From: an uncultured virus (IMG/VR IMGVR_UViG_3300005265_000018)
Lineage: Duplodnaviria > Heunggongvirae > Uroviricota > Caudoviricetes
Reading direction: 5' to 3' (one strand)
Virus record (IMG/VR): IMGVR_UViG_3300005265_000018
DNA length: 64,000 nucleotides
The notes under the pieces were generated by a model. It was given only the letters and a program-made list of their open reading frames with translations, was not told where the DNA came from and searched no databases. Of this stretch, positions 24,601-47,414 are shown piece after piece. Each line of letters begins with the position of its first letter. Position 1 is the stretch's first letter. The position numbers and the translations under genes were made by a program.

Positions 24601-25131
24601 ATGTTAGGCAAGGTGCCGATTAAAATTATGCCAAAAACCAATAAGCCACTTTCTAATAAAATATTATTAGAAAAAAAGAAAAAAAGACAGGCATTATTAT
24701 CCACCTTACGTTCATGGGTAGACAGAATGATGCAACGCCCAGACATGGCCAGTCGGTTAAGACGGAGATCGTTATTGACCAAACCAACGCCAAGACCGAT
24801 TAAACCAACCCCACCGCCAATCAGACCAACTCCAACGCCAAGACCGATTAAACCAACCCCACCGCCAATCAGACCAACTCCAACGCCAAGACCGATTAAA
24901 CCAACCCCACCGCCAATGCCAGTAAAAATACCAAAAGAACCCATACAGCGGAGCAGATATTCGTCTTCCCCGATACGAACGAAACCAGTTACACAGCCAA
25001 ACAGGAATATAGGACAATATATTCCATCACACCCATTAGAATCAGCAGTAAAGCAGGGGAAATTAATTAGGACAGCCGTAAGGAATAAAAGGCAACAACT
25101 TCGGAACAAACTAAAAGGAAGATTAATATAA
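24601..25131 (+). CDS. Basic Pro-rich protein with ~3 x 16-aa (48-bp) repeats
   Basis: PTPRPIKPTPPPIRPT repeats at ~24784-24918. Confidence 0.7.
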   Translation: MLGKVPIKIMPKTNKPLSNKILLEKKKKRQALLSTLRSWVDRMMQRPDMASRLRRRSLLTKPTPRPIKPTPPPIRPTPTPRPIKPTPPPIRPTPTPRPIKPTPPPMPVKIPKEPIQRSRYSSSPIRTKPVTQPNRNIGQYIPSHPLESAVKQGKLIRTAVRNKRQQLRNKLKGRLI

Positions 25132-25353: not shown

Positions 25354-26223
25354 ATGTCTGAGAACAAAAAAAATCCAGAGTCCACCAATGATCAGGTGGG
25401 TAGCTCAGGAAAATATGTTGATCCTGAACGGGTTAATTTAGCCAATACAGGGGAGTCAACAAAATCAACTCAAGCAGACGGAACGGGTGGTGCCGACACA
25501 AAAGACACCCAAACTGTTGGAGAAACAGTTCCTAAGTCGCAGTATGATGAATTGGAGAAAAAACTTGGTGAACAGGGCGTTGAGCTCGGTGAAGCCAGGA
25601 AGTATAAAGATTTTTTCGAGGAAGTTGCACCATTGATGGAAAAGCTGGATGCTGATCCTAAATTGGTGGAAGCTATCGTTGATGGAAAAATCAATTCCGA
25701 ATTAGTCAAATCTGTGATAGAAGGAGAGGTATCCAATGAGGATGCCAAAAAAGTTACTGAAGCTCACAAAGAAGTGAAAAAAGACTTGGGTGATAAGAAA
25801 TACGAGAAAACTTCGCCAGAGGAAATTGAGAAATTGGTTTCCGAGAAAGTGGCGAAGGGAGTCGGTGAAGTCGAAAAAAAATTCAGCCAAGAATTAGATG
25901 AAGATCGTCGAATCAGAGAGTATGAAAGTGATATTAATTCTTTTATTAGTCGTACTCCTGATTTTGCTGATTTTGCTGATGATATTCAGAAATATGTGGA
26001 CACTCATCCCGAAATAACTGATATTGAAGCTGCCTATGATGCCGTTAAGGGCAAAAGAATAATAGAAAGTGCCAAACAAGAAGAAGAGGAGGGGATAAAA
26101 GAAAAAGAAAAGGATTTGGCAACTAATATCGGTGGTGGTGAATCGCACAGTGCGGGTCCAATGAAGGATGAGAATTTAGCAGATCAGCTGATTGGTGGAT
26201 CTTCTAACCCTAATATTTTTTAG
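25354..26223 (+). CDS. Probable capsid scaffolding protein
   Basis: Acidic, coiled-coil, YDELEKKLGEQG motif; directly upstream of the capsid gene. Confidence 0.75.
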   Translation: MSENKKNPESTNDQVGSSGKYVDPERVNLANTGESTKSTQADGTGGADTKDTQTVGETVPKSQYDELEKKLGEQGVELGEARKYKDFFEEVAPLMEKLDADPKLVEAIVDGKINSELVKSVIEGEVSNEDAKKVTEAHKEVKKDLGDKKYEKTSPEEIEKLVSEKVAKGVGEVEKKFSQELDEDRRIREYESDINSFISRTPDFADFADDIQKYVDTHPEITDIEAAYDAVKGKRIIESAKQEEEEGIKEKEKDLATNIGGGESHSAGPMKDENLADQLIGGSSNPNIF

Positions 26224-26284: not shown

Positions 26285-29200
26285 ATGAGTTATCCGTATA
26301 TTGTAATGCGGATATAAAATCTAGCTATGTGCGGGGAAGTGTTGTTAGGTTAATAGTAGGATACCACATGGAGAAATTTTGTGGCGTACCCTAAAAATCT
26401 ATTAAATAGACATTATCCGCAGGCAAAACAATGATAATAAAAGGAAAACGCACTAAGGGAGTTCATTTAAGGAAAAACTTTCATTTATCTGATATTCAGA
26501 AGCAATTATGTTATGGCACTTTATTAGGAGATGCTAGTTTAAATTGGCGATCCAATGGACAATGTAGACTCAAGGTGGGTCATTGCGAAAAACAACAGGA
26601 TTATCTGGAATGGAAAAGGAATTTATTAATGCCATTTATATTACAGAGCGAACCAACTATTGATTTACTTTCAGAAAGTAATTTTAGTAAAAATGGCAGT
26701 AAATTTTATATTTATAACACTATAGCCCATCAAGATTTTACAGATATGGCAGGATTGTTTTATAGAAAAGTGAGTGGTAAAAGAATTCGTTATATTACCA
26801 TGAAAACATTAAAATTACTTAATCCATTCGCTATTTTGATTTGGTATTTGGATGATGGAATATTGACCAAAGATAAGGAAATGAGAATTTATAGTAATGC
26901 TTATAGTTTATCTCACCATAAGGCAATTAAGATATGGTTTTGGCAACAATATCGTATTGAAACTAAAATAGTCCCAACACGCCATGGTGAAAAAATTTAT
27001 TACTTTTTGCGATTTAGTGTTAATAACTCTAAGAACTTGCAAGAATTATTTAATCCTTATATTGACAGTCTTCCAGAATGTATAAAATATAAATTGTTAG
27101 CCTCAACGACCATACGCAAGACACCAATATGGTGATGAGCTGGTCTGATCCCCTTAGAGATATGGGGTGCTAAACAGAGATGTTTGGTAGGTAAAACATA
27201 AATAATTACACAGAGCCTTAATTGAGTAGGACTCGCTTGTGGTAACACAGGGCAATGAAATTCCTCAAATTGCTGGAAACACCTTATAGCCTTAAATTAC
27301 AAAATAATAGTATCCATTGGGTATTGTTAAATGTGAAAATATTTAAGGATTGGTCAATCAGCATGCAAGCCCGTAAGGGAAGCATCAGAGACTAGACGGG
27401 GGAACTCCTAATAGGAGTATGGTATAGTCCGATCTCTATGGAGACATAGAGTTAACATATAATGACTCACGATAGAGGGGCAGTAGCATCTGCCGCTCGT
27501 GATACTGCTGTATCAACAGCAGAAGGCCGTCTTAAATTGGATGTGGTCGACAAGATTTTTCTCTTGGAGCCTAGATTGATTGGGCCCATTTATAGCAATA
27601 TAGATAAAAAAGGGAAAATATGTTAATACGGAAGCAAATTATAAATATTTAGCTATATGCTGGAAACTCCTTTTAAATAATTCATTACCTAAGTGTAAAA
27701 ATATGGATTTAGGGACAATCAGCAGGCAAGATTGTACATTAAACAAAGAATTAGCTTATTTGTTTGGGGTATATTTATCAGATGGATCTATTGTTAATAC
27801 AAATTTTGATTTACAAGTTTGTGATAAAGATTTCGCTGAATTTACCCTTAGTTGTTTTAAAAAAATAATTCCCACTACTCGTGCATATCTACGAGAAAGA
27901 AATGATAATTTGGAATGGAATAAAAATATTAGATATATTATTAGGGTTGGTATGGGGAATTATGCTAATTTTTTTAAACAACAGACAAATAATAAACATC
28001 ATTTACCATTGTGTATATGGGATGCCAATAATGGTTTAAAGAAGTGGTTTATAGCTGGAATTATGGATGGAGATGGATGGATTAGTAAAACAAAAAGAAA
28101 ATCTCCACCATCTCAAATAGGAAAATTCCAATACCGTATTGGTATTGGTGGCGTAGAAGATGGGTGGATATATGAATTCAGAAAATTATTGGCCGAATTT
28201 AGAGTAAAATGTAATAAGGTAGAAAGGGTTGTTACTAAAAATGGTAGGTGGTTTTGTCGGTTTAGTATTAACCCAAAATCATTTTTTGATGCAAAATTAT
28301 TTTTCACTATAAAAAGAAAACAAGAGAGATGTACAATAGCCTCAGAGACTGCACGCTAGACATCCCACTGGGATGAAGATACAGTCCGATCTTTATGGAA
28401 ACATAAAGTTAACACAAAGAATCAACATCCATTGGTAACTCTTCTAACCAATGTCGGGAAAACCTTTGATGGTAAAAGCTGGAAGGGGTCTTCTATTTTA
28501 AAGGCTGCTACTGGCAATCCCGAATTTAAATGGTTTAATCTTAGGACCATATAAAATTTGGCTATATGCTGGAACGAACTTGTTAAATCATAATTACTAC
28601 TAAGTGAAAATATTATGAGTAGAGTCGATCAGCAGGTAACCTCACATCAACTCGCATGGTTGGCGGGAATATGGGATGGAGAAGGAACATTCACTATTTC
28701 TTTTTTACAGAAAGGAAAAGGTAAGTTTTTTCTTTCATCTCAAATTACGCTAACAAATTCTTGTCCATTAATGATCAATGAAATTTCTAAAATTATTGAT
28801 TATTATAAAATAGGGGCACATTTATGGCTTGAAAATCTTCGAACAAAAAAACATAAACAGTGCTATCATTTAACTATTAGAAAACAAGAATGTATAAAAA
28901 AATTTATAGAGTTGGTGTTACCTTATTTAATTACTAAAAAATCTCGTGCAGAAATACTTTATAGATTTGTTTGTAAGAGAATGAAGTATAAAAGAAAAGT
29001 TATACAAGGCTCTAATGGACAACTTAAGGGCGTAAAACCCCAAAGTTATTCAGACGAAGAAATGAGTTTATACGAGCAAATAAAGAAATTAAATTCAAAG
29101 GGTTATAAAGAGGGAACCTCAACGACTGTACGCCAAACACCCAAAAGGGGCGATGATACAGTCTAATCTGCATGGAGACATGCAGCTAATACAAATGTGA

Positions 29201-31392
29201 AGATTTTTATGGCGGTCGTTATGCGAAAGTGAGTGGGACTTACGCTGCAGCAGGTGCTGTAACTATTACTGTTACGGGTGCTGGCAGTTCTTCAGCTTAT
29301 ATTTTCACCAAAGGTGACATTATCATTAATGCTCGAACAGGTGAACGTATGGAGGTAGCTACTATTGCGTCTACAACTACAATTACGATTGCGGCAGGTG
29401 GACGTTCTATAGGTGCTACAGCTGCGGCTGCTGGTGCTGACGGAGATGGACTCTATATCGTTGGTAATGCTTCGGAGGAAAATGCTAGTGCGAGGAATAT
29501 TAATACTACTCGCTCTTCAGCAGAATCCAATTACACTTTAATTAAAATTTGGGTGTAACAAAATTTAGCTATATGCGGGAAACTGTCGCTAGGTTAACAG
29601 TAGGATAATAAGATTTAACATCTTATCGAACCCTAAAAATCTGTTAAATAGACACAATCTGCAGGAAAGATAATTTATGTATATTAAAAAATGCGATATT
29701 TGCGGGAAGGAATTTGTTGTAAATCGCTATAATACCAATGTTTGTTCTAATGAATGTCGAATTATTAATAGGAATAAAAAATTAAAAATTAGAAGAGAAA
29801 AGAAAAGAATATATTACGTTAAATATTGTAAAAAATGTGGTAAAGAATTTGTTACTTATTGGTCTAGAAAAATTTTTTGTTCCAATAGTTGCAAATGTGG
29901 ATATTGGGATAAATTAAGAGCCGATAAAAAACCGAGAAAAACTAATAAACGATATTCAATTGCTAACGAGTTAAGAACACAATCTTTTACCCCCAAACAA
30001 TTATCCATAATATTGGGTACATTATTAGGGAATGGGTGCTTAATAAAATCTAGTAAAACAGGGGAAAGTAATCTATATAGACTTTCATGGACACATGGAG
30101 CTGTGCAAAAAGAATATATTGAATGGAAAAATCAAGAAATGAAACCTTTTACTACCAATGGATTAATAAGATATAAAAGAAAGAATAATAATGGATTTGG
30201 AAGAAAAGATAATAAAGAAGAAATAACATATCATTTGGTAACCATTGGACACAATGATTTAGCTAGGCTGAGGGGCATATTATACAGGGGAAAGAAAAAA
30301 TTTGTTACTAGAAGGTATTTGAACATGCTAGATGAATTAAGTTTGGCAGTATGGTATATGGATGATGGAAGTTATAGTAAAAAGAATAAAGCAATGATAT
30401 TACATACGCTTGGAATGAATATGTCAGAACATAAAGCAATGCAAAAATGGTTTTGGCAGAGGTGGCACATAGAATGTATTATTAGCAATATAAAAAAAGA
30501 ATATAACAATGGTATTAAGCGATACAATTATTTAAGGTTTAGGGTGAGTGAAACTAAAAAATTTCATAATTTAGTAGCTCCATATATTATTCCTTCTATG
30601 CAATATAAATTAAATCCTCAACGACTAATACGCTAAAATATCTAATTTTTAGATATAAGATAGAGTCTCCTCTTACTAGAGATAGTAAGGCCATTAAAGG
30701 CAATAACTAATTAAAGTTATAAGATTTGACAAATTTTTCGTACTACGGTAGGTGCATCTCGCACTGAGATGAAGTCAGACCTTTATGGCCCAAAAGATAT
30801 GGTATATCAAAGGGCTAAAAAGGGTACTGTACATGCCTTAGACATCGAAAGAGCATTTTGGTGGGGCGAAAAAGGTTCTACCACTGGTACTAATGGACAT
30901 CCAAAGAAATATACTGGCGGTGTTTTAGAGTTTATTGAGGCAGGTAAAGCCTATGTTCAGGATCAGGACGGTCCTATAACTGCTCCTGATTTTAACACTT
31001 TCTTAAGAGAAGGATTCACCTATGGATCAACAACCAAAGTGTTGTTTGCGGGGGGCATTATAATTGAAGCTCTCAACGAAATAGCTCGCGGTCAATTACA
31101 AACTAAAGTTGGATCCACTACTTATGGTGTAAAAATCAATGAGTGGATTACTCCTTTTGGTGTGGTTAATATTGTCCACAATCCGCTATTCGTTGAAGAT
31201 TATGCTGGTTATGGCTTCCTATTAGACATGAGTTCTTTCCGTTATCGTTATCTAAATGATAGTGATACTCACTTAAATACGAACATTCAATCTCCCGACG
31301 TTGATGGTCAGATTGATGAGTATTTAACTGAATGCGGTCTTGAGAGAAAGCAGGCGGCAAATTGTGCCTTAATTAAAGGCGTAACAGGCTAA
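26285..31392 (+). CDS. Major capsid protein, spliced: join(26285-26297, 27205-27218, 27465-27572, 28420-28535, 29198-29537, 30730-31392), 417 aa
   Basis: Exons join into one open frame (MSYPYYTEPTHDRG...FLLEPNQHPL...EFKWFEDFY...SNYTQIFRT...LIKGVTG); every junction has P1 U-G and P10 pairing; follows the scaffold gene. Confidence 0.88.
26298..27204 (+). mobile_element. Group I intron 1 of the capsid gene (terminal nucleotide apparently A)
   Basis: P1 TATCCGT/GCGGATA; P10 TGTAAT/ATTACA; P7 GACCA/TGGTC; P9 hairpins. Confidence 0.85.
26431..27135 (+). CDS. Intron-encoded LAGLIDADG homing endonuclease (two motifs)
   Basis: YGTLLGDASL and IWYLDDG. Confidence 0.9.
   Translation: MIIKGKRTKGVHLRKNFHLSDIQKQLCYGTLLGDASLNWRSNGQCRLKVGHCEKQQDYLEWKRNLLMPFILQSEPTIDLLSESNFSKNGSKFYIYNTIAHQDFTDMAGLFYRKVSGKRIRYITMKTLKLLNPFAILIWYLDDGILTKDKEMRIYSNAYSLSHHKAIKIWFWQQYRIETKIVPTRHGEKIYYFLRFSVNNSKNLQELFNPYIDSLPECIKYKLLASTTIRKTPIW
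27219..27464 (+). mobile_element. Group I intron 2 of the capsid gene (ORF-less, 246 nt)
   Basis: TTGCTGGAAA, AATCAGCA, TCAGAGACTA and TATAGTCC core elements; P10 TGAGT/ACTCA; omega-G at 27464. Confidence 0.9.
27573..28419 (+). mobile_element. Group I intron 3 of the capsid gene
   Basis: P1 GCCT/GGGC; P10 TTGATT/AATCAA; P7 GACTG/CAGTC; omega-G at 28419. Confidence 0.9.
27703..28359 (+). CDS. Intron-encoded LAGLIDADG homing endonuclease
   Basis: LAYLFGVYLSDG and FIAGIMDGDG. Confidence 0.9.
   Translation: MDLGTISRQDCTLNKELAYLFGVYLSDGSIVNTNFDLQVCDKDFAEFTLSCFKKIIPTTRAYLRERNDNLEWNKNIRYIIRVGMGNYANFFKQQTNNKHHLPLCIWDANNGLKKWFIAGIMDGDGWISKTKRKSPPSQIGKFQYRIGIGGVEDGWIYEFRKLLAEFRVKCNKVERVVTKNGRWFCRFSINPKSFFDAKLFFTIKRKQERCTIASETAR
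28536..29197 (+). mobile_element. Group I intron 4 of the capsid gene
   Basis: P1 ATGGTT/GACCAT; P7 GACTG/CAGTC; P9 CTGCATG-GAGA-CATGCAG; omega-G at 29197. Confidence 0.88.
28615..29166 (+). CDS. Intron-encoded single-motif LAGLIDADG endonuclease
   Basis: LAWLAGIWDGEG; LPYLITKK. Confidence 0.9.
   Translation: MSRVDQQVTSHQLAWLAGIWDGEGTFTISFLQKGKGKFFLSSQITLTNSCPLMINEISKIIDYYKIGAHLWLENLRTKKHKQCYHLTIRKQECIKKFIELVLPYLITKKSRAEILYRFVCKRMKYKRKVIQGSNGQLKGVKPQSYSDEEMSLYEQIKKLNSKGYKEGTSTTVRQTPKRGDDTV
29538..30729 (+). mobile_element. Group I intron 5 of the capsid gene (terminal nucleotide apparently A)
   Basis: P1 TTACACT/GGTGTAA; P10 AAAATTTG/CAAATTTT; core closely similar to intron 1. Confidence 0.85.
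29677..30636 (+). CDS. Intron-encoded LAGLIDADG protein with N-terminal Zn-ribbon repeats; first motif has Asn in place of Asp
   Basis: CxxCGKEF x2; LGTLLGNG; WYMDDG. Confidence 0.85.
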   Translation: MYIKKCDICGKEFVVNRYNTNVCSNECRIINRNKKLKIRREKKRIYYVKYCKKCGKEFVTYWSRKIFCSNSCKCGYWDKLRADKKPRKTNKRYSIANELRTQSFTPKQLSIILGTLLGNGCLIKSSKTGESNLYRLSWTHGAVQKEYIEWKNQEMKPFTTNGLIRYKRKNNNGFGRKDNKEEITYHLVTIGHNDLARLRGILYRGKKKFVTRRYLNMLDELSLAVWYMDDGSYSKKNKAMILHTLGMNMSEHKAMQKWFWQRWHIECIISNIKKEYNNGIKRYNYLRFRVSETKKFHNLVAPYIIPSMQYKLNPQRLIR

Positions 31393-45657: not shown

Positions 45658-47414
45658 ATGAGATATCAAGCAGAAGAAATAAAAAGAAAGAAGTCGGATA
45701 AGAAAAAATCCAAACCCATTAAAGAATTTATAGACAAAAATCTGGGTATGGATAAGATTAGGGGCAGACCTATTCGCCTTAACAAACAAAGGCTAATTCC
45801 CAATAATGATAATTATGCGGAATTGATATTGTTTGGTGATGTTCACTTGGGTTATCCTACATCCAATATCAAAAAGGCAAAAAAGACGTTGGAATACGCT
45901 CTTGATAATAAGGCGTATATAATCGCTATGGGAGATATGATGGAATCGGGTTTGACCAATAGTATTGGCAATAGTGTTTATAGGCAGAAGCTCAATCCAC
46001 AGAAACAAATGGAGGCCATAATAGAAATGTTAAAGACCGTAGCGAAAGAGGGGTTGTTAATTGGATACCACGAGGGAAATCATGAGCAAAGAATAACAAA
46101 TTCTACAGGTATAGATATATCCAAAATTATAGCCCGTATTCTAAATATTCCTTATTTGGGATATGCTTGTTGGAGTATATTGTCTGTTGACGGTATTCGG
46201 TATTCGGTATATAGCCAGCACGGGGTATCTGGTGCTTGTGTAGATGGGCACCTAATCGGGTAAACTGCTGGAACACCTTTAGAGCTCATAACACCACAAC
46301 GTAATTGGAAACGATAAGCGTGATGGTTTGAAAAGTTATGGGATTAGGCAATCAGCATCCAAGCTCCTTAAATGGAGAAGGTTCAGAGACTACACGCCCG
46401 ACTATTGTATATTATATTTAGTGTGATATAATAAAAGCATACTAAATAACATAATAAATATGGCTATAAAGTGTAAGTGGTGCAACAAAGAATTTACCCC
46501 AAGAAGTAATATAGGTGGTAAGCAGAAATTTTGTTCTAAAAATTGTAGAGAGGAATACCATAGTTTTATGGATAAAAGAAGTCCACTCTATAATGAAAAA
46601 AGAACAAGGGATATTGTTTTATCTAATCCAAACTTATATGTTAAATGTCAAATTTGTGGGAAATTAGCCAGAAGGAAATTATCAAAGCATGTAAAAACAT
46701 ATCACAAAATGTCTTGGCAGGAATATAAAGATAGATTTCCAGACGCCGAAGATGAGTGTAAAGAAGTAAAAGATTATTCCTATGAGTATGTTAAAAGAAA
46801 GGGAATAGTAACTAAAAGAGACGATATTTTGATTAGTTGGGAGGGAATTAAAAGAAGAAAAATGAAAAAAGTTGGCAATAAATGTGAATTGTGTGGGTTT
46901 AATAAATACAAAGAATCATTAACCGCTCATCATATAATCCCGAAAGAGTATGGCGGAAAAGACGAATACAATAATTGTATAATCGTTTGTGAGAATTGTC
47001 ATAGGCATATACATCGTTTGATATTTGATTTGGTTAAAACTAAAAAATATACAATAGAAGATATAGTCCAAACTTGTGCGAGAGCACAAGAAGTAGGCAG
47101 TAAAAGTCTACGATAATAAAATGCGTTTCAAACACACCAAGTTAAAGGCTATTATGGACCAAGCGGCGTGGATAAATTCGGATATTTTGGCAATGGGTCA
47201 CGTGCACGCGATGTCGGCTGAGCCGATACTGAAACAAAGATTTGACCGTTCCATTAACAAGGTTGTTGAAGAAAAACAGATAGTAGTTTTGACGGGAGCA
47301 TATCTGGAATGGGATAACAGTTACGCTCAAATGAAAGGTTATCCAATCGTTAAAATAGGTTCGCCAAAACTTAAATTGGTAGCCAGTGAAAAAGATATTC
47401 ATATTCGTCTTTAA
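45658..47414 (+). CDS. Calcineurin-like metallophosphoesterase, spliced: join(45658-46236, 47124-47414), 289 aa
   Basis: GDVH, GD, GNHE, HG | GHVH motifs; the junction HGVSGA|RFKHTKL aligns with paralogue HGSSGSKHPHTKL. Confidence 0.88.
46237..47123 (+). mobile_element. Group I intron with an HNH endonuclease ORF
   Basis: P1 GGTGCT/GGCACC; CTGCTGGAA, AATCAGCA, TCAGAGACTA and AAGATATAGTCC; omega-G at 47123. Confidence 0.9.
46460..47116 (+). CDS. Intron-encoded HNH homing endonuclease with Zn fingers
   Basis: CELCG...AHHIIP...GG...N...CENCHRHIH. Confidence 0.9.
   Translation: MAIKCKWCNKEFTPRSNIGGKQKFCSKNCREEYHSFMDKRSPLYNEKRTRDIVLSNPNLYVKCQICGKLARRKLSKHVKTYHKMSWQEYKDRFPDAEDECKEVKDYSYEYVKRKGIVTKRDDILISWEGIKRRKMKKVGNKCELCGFNKYKESLTAHHIIPKEYGGKDEYNNCIIVCENCHRHIHRLIFDLVKTKKYTIEDIVQTCARAQEVGSKSLR

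Follow-up and report, generated by a model that had tools for sequence, protein, structure and literature searches.

Capsid gene and its introns

The uncultured caudovirus IMGVR_UViG_3300005265_000018, from which a 64,000-nucleotide (nt) stretch of DNA (the window) was analysed, carries an SU10-type major capsid gene at positions 26285-31392 of the plus strand. The gene is interrupted by five group I introns (Table 1), of which introns 1 and 5 probably belong to one lineage of introns whose last base, omega, can be A. The positions of the exons were guided by full-length intronless capsid homologues. Spliced at the inferred junctions, the six exons form a frame of 1254 nt that encodes 417 amino acids (aa) without internal stop codons. 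The spliced product is 73.6% identical to homologue P0005 over 416 aa with no gaps, and is also gap-free against the intronless homologues P0001 and P0004 (417-418 aa). Its N-terminus, MSYPYYTEPTHD, agrees with those of P0005 and P0006 (..YPYYTEPTHD). Exon 6 as a query identified 701 longer proteins at an expect value (E) of 0.001 or below, the best of which have a length of about 418 aa and identities reach 78%. The window has a G+C content of about 33% and contains no second copy of the capsid gene. The DNA of the window is present in one public sequencing run, a marine sediment metagenome that is possibly its source sample; no RNA run was found to contain it.

Four of the five capsid introns contain open reading frames (ORFs) for LAGLIDADG proteins (Pfam PF03161), and intron 2 is without an ORF. 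Intron 2 is also the sole capsid-gene intron of the window that scores above the Rfam threshold. Sub-threshold matches cover the 3' halves of introns 3, 4, and 1; that of intron 1 (27009-27167, 26.4 bits, E 0.0013) lies below the gathering threshold of 50 bits. Intron 5 gave no Rfam match at E up to 10. The Rfam group I model (RF00028) is split in introns 1 and 5 by the ORFs of 700-960 nt inserted in the loop of paired segment P6.

Table 1. Exons and introns of the capsid gene, selected intron elements, and the sixth group I intron of the window
Feature	Position	Strand	Description
Exon 1	26285-26297	+	ATG + 10 nt; MSYP and first base of the next codon; homologue P0005 starts MSYPYHNEPTHD
Intron 1	26298-27204	+	Group I, 907 nt, last base A27204; contiguous P1/P10, core pairs
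Intron 1 internal guide sequence	26302-26314	+	UGUAAU (P10 strand) and GCGGAUA (P1 strand)
Intron 1 LAGLIDADG homing endonuclease ORF	26431-27135	+	234 aa; PF03161 1.7e-22, 80.6 bits (cut-off 25)
Intron 1 P7	27108-27145	+	GACCA (27108-27112) with UGGUC (27141-27145); P3' and P8 between
Exon 2	27205-27218	+	14 nt, AUUACACAGAGCCU, ..YYTEP
Intron 2	27219-27464	+	ORF-less group I; RF00028 72.2 bits at 27209-27451; ends G27464
Exon 3	27465-27572	+	Homology, intact spliced frame
Intron 3	27573-28419	+	LAGLIDADG ORF 27703-28359; ends G28419
Exon 4	28420-28535	+	Homology, intact spliced frame
Intron 4	28536-29197	+	LAGLIDADG ORF 28615-29166; ends G29197
Exon 5	29198-29537	+	Ends ..AAU UAC ACU (NYT)
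Intron 5	29538-30729	+	Group I, 1192 nt, last base A30729; P1/P10; A-ending relatives L014 and L247 at the same site
Intron 5 internal guide sequence	29544-29558	+	AAAAUUUG (P10 strand) and GGUGUAA (P1 strand)
Intron 5 LAGLIDADG endonuclease ORF	29677-30636	+	319 aa, Cys-rich N-terminal extension; PF03161 3.4e-27, 95.9 bits (cut-off 25)
Intron 5 P7	30623-30667	+	GACUA (30623-30627) with GAGUC (30663-30667)
Exon 6	30730-31392	+	QIFRTT... to stop; SU10-type capsid domain PF17236, 133.4 bits, 1.5e-38
Sixth group I intron	~46238-47124	+	Host gene product reads like metallophosphoesterase (..GYHEGNHE..); found by motif and reading

Introns 1 and 5 end in A

A first-pass annotation of the window had proposed that introns 1 and 5 terminate in A and the other four group I introns in G. 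The junctions obtained here agree with this proposal. Protein homology and the contiguous arrangement of helices P1 and P10 on the guide sequence point to A27204 and A30729 as the terminal bases, and introns 2, 3, and 4 and the sixth intron end in G.

The P1 helix of intron 1 is formed by UAUCCGU (26291-26297) and GCGGAUA (26308-26314), with the U.G pair 26297/26308 at the cleavage site. The P10 helix, in which AUUACA of exon 2 (27205-27210) pairs with UGUAAU (26302-26307), abuts P1 on the guide sequence. Therefore, the last base of the intron is assigned to A27204. In a scan from -60 to +15 nt, a P10 longer than 3 base pairs (bp) can be formed at one position only. We enumerated junctions by combining 5' splice sites from -6 to +6 with every G from -120 nt through the end of exon 2. 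The nearest upstream Gs had been noted before to give stop codons, and this extends to every in-frame upstream choice within 120 nt. The alternatives that keep the frame open use a G inside exon 2 and remove conserved residues of the YYTE stretch.

The P1 helix of intron 5 consists of UUACACU (29531-29537) and GGUGUAA (29552-29558), again with a U.G pair at the cleavage site. Its P10 has 8 bp, between positions 30730-30737 in exon 6 (CAAAUUUU) and 29544-29551, and is contiguous with P1, which therefore places the last base at A30729. In both introns, the inferred P10 (6 and 8 bp) is the unique maximum of the scanned interval. The protein is preserved in exactly one alternative register of intron 5, in which the 5' exon ends at C29536 and the intron runs from 29537 to a terminal G30728.

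The endonuclease ORFs of introns 1 and 5 are intact, and the two enzymes share 34% identity. The ORF of intron 1 is located in the P6 loop and extends into P6', P7, P3', and P8. The guanosine-binding pair is G27108-C27145 in intron 1 and G30623-C30667 in intron 5, and the flanking pair is in both cases A-U with a bulged C.

Terminal A recurs in related introns

Relatives of the two introns were gathered from IMG/VR and from metagenomes by alignment of the two endonucleases, by guide-sequence and P3-P4 patterns, and with the capsid protein. The core shared by introns 1 and 5 and the two strings spanning the joining segment J8/7 and P7 are present as the first-pass annotation had described them. 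Its exact core strings as queries gave chance matches or nothing in viral contigs, and a gapped core pattern identified the contig of L003 alone. No relatives were found with the endonuclease of intron 5 as the sole query; it was the alignment-based search that yielded L014 and L015. The site-1 guide pattern matched at least 120 loci in genome contigs, and none of the matches listed adjoined an intron core. The broad P3-P4 pattern matched at least 118 metagenomic loci, 80 of them with full flanks and mostly introns of ribosomal RNA (rRNA) or organelle type; four capsid-gene loci were among the matches listed.

Nine distinct introns of shared architecture were found on different viral and metagenome contigs, all of them at the capsid site of intron 1 (YP/YYTEP) or that of intron 5 (N[YF]T/QIF), where the slash marks the insertion (Table 2). 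They lack P2, have a P5 extension ..GUAGG(A/C)UA..CCCU.AAAAU.. (..GUAGGAUA..CCCUAAAAAU..), carry the endonuclease gene in the P6 loop, and have a long tail after P9. The terminal base is A in six of the nine, three of the five at site 1 and three of the four at site 5; the other three end in G. Every non-G terminus is thus an A (6/6), with C or U in none. Being identical over 7543 nt, L247 and L248 were counted once. All ten other capsid-gene introns end in G: introns 2-4 of the window, one each in G001, G002, and L144, and two each in L184 and L247. Excluded from this count are the site-4 intron of L154 and, in the capsid gene of G001, two further gaps at residues 53-56 and 77-82.

Table 2. 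Terminal bases of the nine introns of the lineage; a slash marks the inferred 3' splice site
Site	Intron	3' junction	Terminal base
1	Window intron 1	..AUAAAUA/AUUACA	A
1	L089	..AUAAUCA/AUUACA	A
1	L154	..AUUUGUA/AUUACA	A
1	L003	..CACAAUG/AUUACA	G
1	L133	..CAAAAUG/AUUACA	G
5	Window intron 5	..GAUUUGA/CAAAUU	A
5	L014	..AUUAGAA/CAAAUA	A
5	L247 (= L248)	..AUUGUAA/CAGAUU	A
5	L015	..CAGAAUG/CAAAUU	G

In intron 1, L089, and L247, the enumeration leaves no G-ending junction that preserves the conserved residues, and the same holds, by reading, for L014. A P10 of 5-8 bp contiguous with P1 is present at the homology-inferred site in all six A-ending introns. It is the single longest P10 in five of them, and is tied with one other position in L014. 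The latter is the closest relative of intron 5, with RNA identities of 114/135 and 94/121 (84% and 78%) and endonucleases that are 60.5% identical. The close homologues thus do not all end in G, and the proposed existence of an A-ending lineage is borne out by six of nine related introns.

The three A-ending site-5 introns share the sequence AAGAUU 2-4 nt before the terminal A (window 30717-30729, AAGAUUUGA; L014 2250-2263, AAGAUUAGAA; L247 1790-1803, AAGAUUGUAA). The G-ending L015 carries ACAGAAUG in place of this stretch. The two insertion sites have the sequence AUUACAC in common, which is located just after the intron at site 1 (UAU UAC ACA; 26295-26297 and 27205-27212 when spliced, UAUUACACA) and just before it at site 5 (AAU UAC ACU; 29530-29537). 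The P10 strand of intron 1, UGUAAU, resembles the P1 strand of intron 5, GGUGUAA. The shared AUUACAC, or the likeness of the guides, might account for the occupation of both sites by a single lineage.

In several contigs, capsid genes of this family contain many introns, with at least four interruptions in G001 (L118, L120, L121), three in L247, and two each in L184 and L154. The insertions are limited to sites after residues 4/5, 9, 39, 45, 53, ~84, 197, 220, and 235. The P3-J3/4-P4 string of these capsid introns, AAAAUYUWRCYAURUGCKGGRAA, also occurs in many introns of 23S rRNA (around GUAACUAUAAC..CCUAAGGUA) and of cox1-like genes (loci L122-L239). Therefore, the capsid introns belong to a widespread intron type.

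The core and the guanosine-binding site are preserved

The cores of seven of the nine introns were compared and are 51-68% identical, with the exception of L003 and L154 (84%). All four helices that were cross-checked, P3, P4, P6, and P7, are preserved through compensatory changes in a hand alignment of eight members of the lineage, as expected of a group I core with P8 and the P3/P7 pseudoknot. The P7 variants are GACCA with UGGUC, GACUG with CAGUC, and GACUA with UAGUC; those of P6 are AGGC with GCCU, AGGA with UCCU, AGGU with ACCU, AGAU with AUCU, and AGAA with UUCU. The A-ending relatives are located in intact capsid frames. Terminal A at the same sites in cores that have diverged to this extent indicates that A has outlasted a long divergence. 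A quick tree built from the cores places A-ending introns on either side of the G-ending ones, with a minimum of two changes. On this tree, G is no more likely than A as the ancestral terminal base of the lineage.

The annotation had connected the terminal A to deviations in the J8/7-P7 strand and had suggested an altered chemistry of the second splicing step. The comparison contradicts the first idea and gives no support to the second. The string AUGAGC followed by NNGUC occurs in intron 1 and L089, both of which end in A. The variant GAUAGAGUC is found in intron 5, L154, and L014, which end in A, and in L003, which ends in G. The canonical GAUAUAGUC is shared by the A-ending L247 with the G-ending L133 and L015. 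A tie between omega and J8/7-P7 was therefore rejected, since both termini occur with the same strings. All eight tabulated introns, A-ending and G-ending alike, retain the G-C pair that binds guanosine (G of GACNN and C of NNGUC) together with the pair flanking it. A change of the guanosine-binding pair to A-U was considered and rejected because it is absent. A tie to the 262-312 pair or to the bulged base was rejected as well, and nothing in the guanosine-binding site covaries with omega.

The LAGLIDADG gene is in the sense orientation in six members of the lineage (introns 1 and 5, L003, L154, L133, and L014) and antisense in three (L089/L004, L247, and L015). The antisense ORF of L247 encodes 302 aa and is 30% identical to the enzyme of intron 5.

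Proposed splicing mechanism and its alternatives

Based on the helices, the preserved core, and the relatives described above, introns 1 and 5 are probably intact group I introns of one lineage that have A at omega and splice by the ordinary two-step reaction. In the first step, the unchanged G-C pair in P7 would bind an exogenous guanosine, which would attack after the U of the wobble pair. Still held in P1, the released exon would then attack the phosphate that follows the terminal A. The phosphate of the 3' splice site would be positioned chiefly by the P10 of 5-8 bp abutting P1, with 6 bp in intron 1 and 8 bp in intron 5, and the terminal A would occupy the guanosine site less well than G. 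The identity of omega may be weakly constrained in the lineage, or A may be mildly favoured, which would lead to the alternation of A and G at the same sites. We infer that the exons are ligated at both sites, and fast enough, because the capsid gene is essential and A has persisted in diverged phages.

Several points weigh against this explanation. Ligation at the junctions of introns 1 and 5 is deduced from the sequence, and the terminal G-to-A change strongly impairs exon ligation in the Tetrahymena intron. The Rfam match is weak for intron 1 and nil for intron 5, and the predicted fold of both depends on the hand alignment. The ratio of A to G comes from a small sample of lineage introns. 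The nine introns are related, so six of nine are not six independent events, and two changes are the minimum on the core tree. An alternative register of L154 with a terminal G would give PNYTEP in place of PYYTEP. In intron 5, the G30728 register is in frame and yields the same protein, NYTQIF.

This last register forms the basis of a competing explanation, which concerns intron 5 alone. If the 5' splice site were after C29536, a C-G pair would close P1, the intron would have the canonical terminal G30728, and the messenger RNA (mRNA) would read ..UAC AC/A CAA.. at the junction. A C at position -1 has been described for convincing bacterial tRNA group I introns (bioRxiv 10.1101/2020.01.27.920355). 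However, the register is bought at the cost of the U.G wobble, as the first-pass annotation had pointed out, and A30729 would stand opposite G29552, so that P10 would no longer be contiguous with P1. The A-ending site-5 relatives L014 and L247 cannot use this register, because the base before their terminal A is also an A. Furthermore, intron 1 and L089 indicate that a terminal A is tolerated in the lineage anyway. We therefore regard the G30728 register as unlikely.

A dependence of the second step on protein help (from a host factor, or from a maturase activity of the LAGLIDADG protein) or on an altered nucleotide-binding site, along the lines of the first-pass annotation, is about equally improbable. 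LAGLIDADG maturases are known from organelles (PMC3984707), and both window introns encode intact LAGLIDADG proteins. However, no change is seen in the guanosine-binding pair or its neighbours, nor do they covary with omega. The endonuclease gene of the A-ending L089 and L247 is antisense, and the protein cannot be translated from their precursors.

The terminal As could instead be inactivating, with incomplete splicing and a capsid gene that is dead or dying in this contig. Nearly all group I introns end in G, and ligation suffers in model introns when this base is mutated. Nevertheless, A occupies the same two sites in five further distinct contigs, in spite of the divergence of the cores. 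The exon frames, both endonuclease ORFs, and the core helices of the window introns are intact, and there is no other copy of the gene in the window. The presence of A in independent, diverged relatives with intact cores argues against a private mutation and against a sequencing error, and we consider the loss of function very unlikely. Errors of sequencing or assembly in the window are the least probable explanation, a far-fetched one. The short-read contigs of the source sample are interrupted at the repeated intron cores and cover neither 27204 nor 30729. However, L089, L154, L247/L248, and L014, which come from independent assemblies of other samples, also have A at the corresponding position, and two errors would hardly fall exactly on the homologous terminal bases of two introns in the same gene.

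A further proposal, that terminal A is the ancestral and selected state of the lineage rather than a tolerated defect, is rather doubtful on the present comparison. If A were selected, an A-ending intron might resist hydrolysis at the 3' splice site and full-length circularisation, as proposed for the ND5-717 intron (PMC8146996). Every precursor of the essential, highly expressed capsid mRNA would be channelled into ligation, guided by the unusually strong P10. The ribozyme would in this case have a naturally relaxed omega specificity, with A and G freely interchangeable, and the natural A/G pairs, L154 with L003 and intron 5 and L014 with L015, could be used for dissecting the role of the single nucleoside site in both steps.

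Other features of the window

The 14-nt exon 2 (27205-27218) contributes its first six bases to P10 of intron 1 and its last four to P1 of intron 2 (GCCU with GGGC). Exon skipping might occur around this exon. The final bases of intron 2 (27462-27464, with G27464 as omega) are AUG, in frame with exon 3. A capsid protein minus its first nine residues could in principle be produced from an unspliced transcript starting at this AUG.

The sixth group I intron has the terminus ..AAAAUG (..AAUAAAAUG) and thus ends in G. Its P7 and J8/7 strand are separated by an ORF that has Cys pairs and an HNH-like motif. The intron was not detected by Rfam at E of 0.1 or below. Rfam scans by E-value of the regions 14.5-22.5, 44-52, and 56-64 kb gave no further group I matches. 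Upstream of the capsid gene, the plus-strand ORF 24601-25131 contains three proline-rich repeat units (..PTPRPIKPTPPPIRPTPT..), and is located just upstream of a putative scaffold gene (25354-26223), which has no Pfam match.

Comparison with known group I introns

Ordinary phage group I introns with homing endonucleases, such as those of T4 td, nrdB, and sunY and of Twort orf142, are known to end in G. They share with the capsid introns the self-splicing architecture, the P1/P10 guide, the endonuclease ORF in a peripheral loop, and the presence of several introns per gene. In contrast to this G-ending type, two of the five introns in one capsid gene of the window end in A.

The terminal base of the Coxiella burnetii 23S rRNA intron Cbu.L1917 is said to be A. 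The canonical terminal G is reportedly absent from this intron, an observation credited to Raghavan et al. 2007. Cbu.L1917 reportedly lies directly upstream of a 34-bp exon that is followed by a second intron, much as intron 1 precedes the 14-nt exon 2 and then intron 2 in the capsid gene. It differs from the capsid introns in its rRNA host gene and in its location on a bacterial chromosome.

The annotation had correctly called omega-A a known rare exception, for which it named the Coxiella intron, but the account was incomplete, since the hexacoral ND5-717 intron is a second documented case (PMC8146996, PMC6545197). This mitochondrial group I intron is described in the two papers as ending in A, with its exons perfectly ligated in vivo. 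As in the capsid introns, the terminal A is maintained across the lineage, which includes sea anemones and mushroom corals. ND5-717 differs in that it is organellar, obligatory, and vertically inherited, is without a homing endonuclease, and carries genes in P8. The capsid introns, in contrast, are phage-borne and of mobile type, with LAGLIDADG genes. They are found at two sites of the capsid gene, where some of their relatives end in G.

Introns 1 and 5 are therefore new cases of a rare, already documented exception. In a literature search on group I introns in phage capsid genes, omega-A was not a topic of the matches listed, as far as their titles and the openings of their abstracts show. 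New are the occurrence of a mobile lineage in phage capsid genes in which A is the majority state (6/9), the A/G pairs at the same insertion site, and the presence of two A-ending introns beside three G-ending ones in one gene.

Implications

The terminal G of group I introns is commonly taken to be invariant. Mapping software and at least one recent database rely on the conserved terminal nucleotides, for instance with a requirement for U at position -1 (PMC11835236) or a score for G at omega (bioRxiv 10.1101/2020.01.27.920355). Rules based on G would mis-map or discard introns of the kind found here. The lineage provides natural material for studying how far ligation depends on omega-G when P10 is strong, and whether omega-A protects against hydrolysis at the 3' splice site. 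It also raises the question of how a phage tolerates five introns in its capsid gene.

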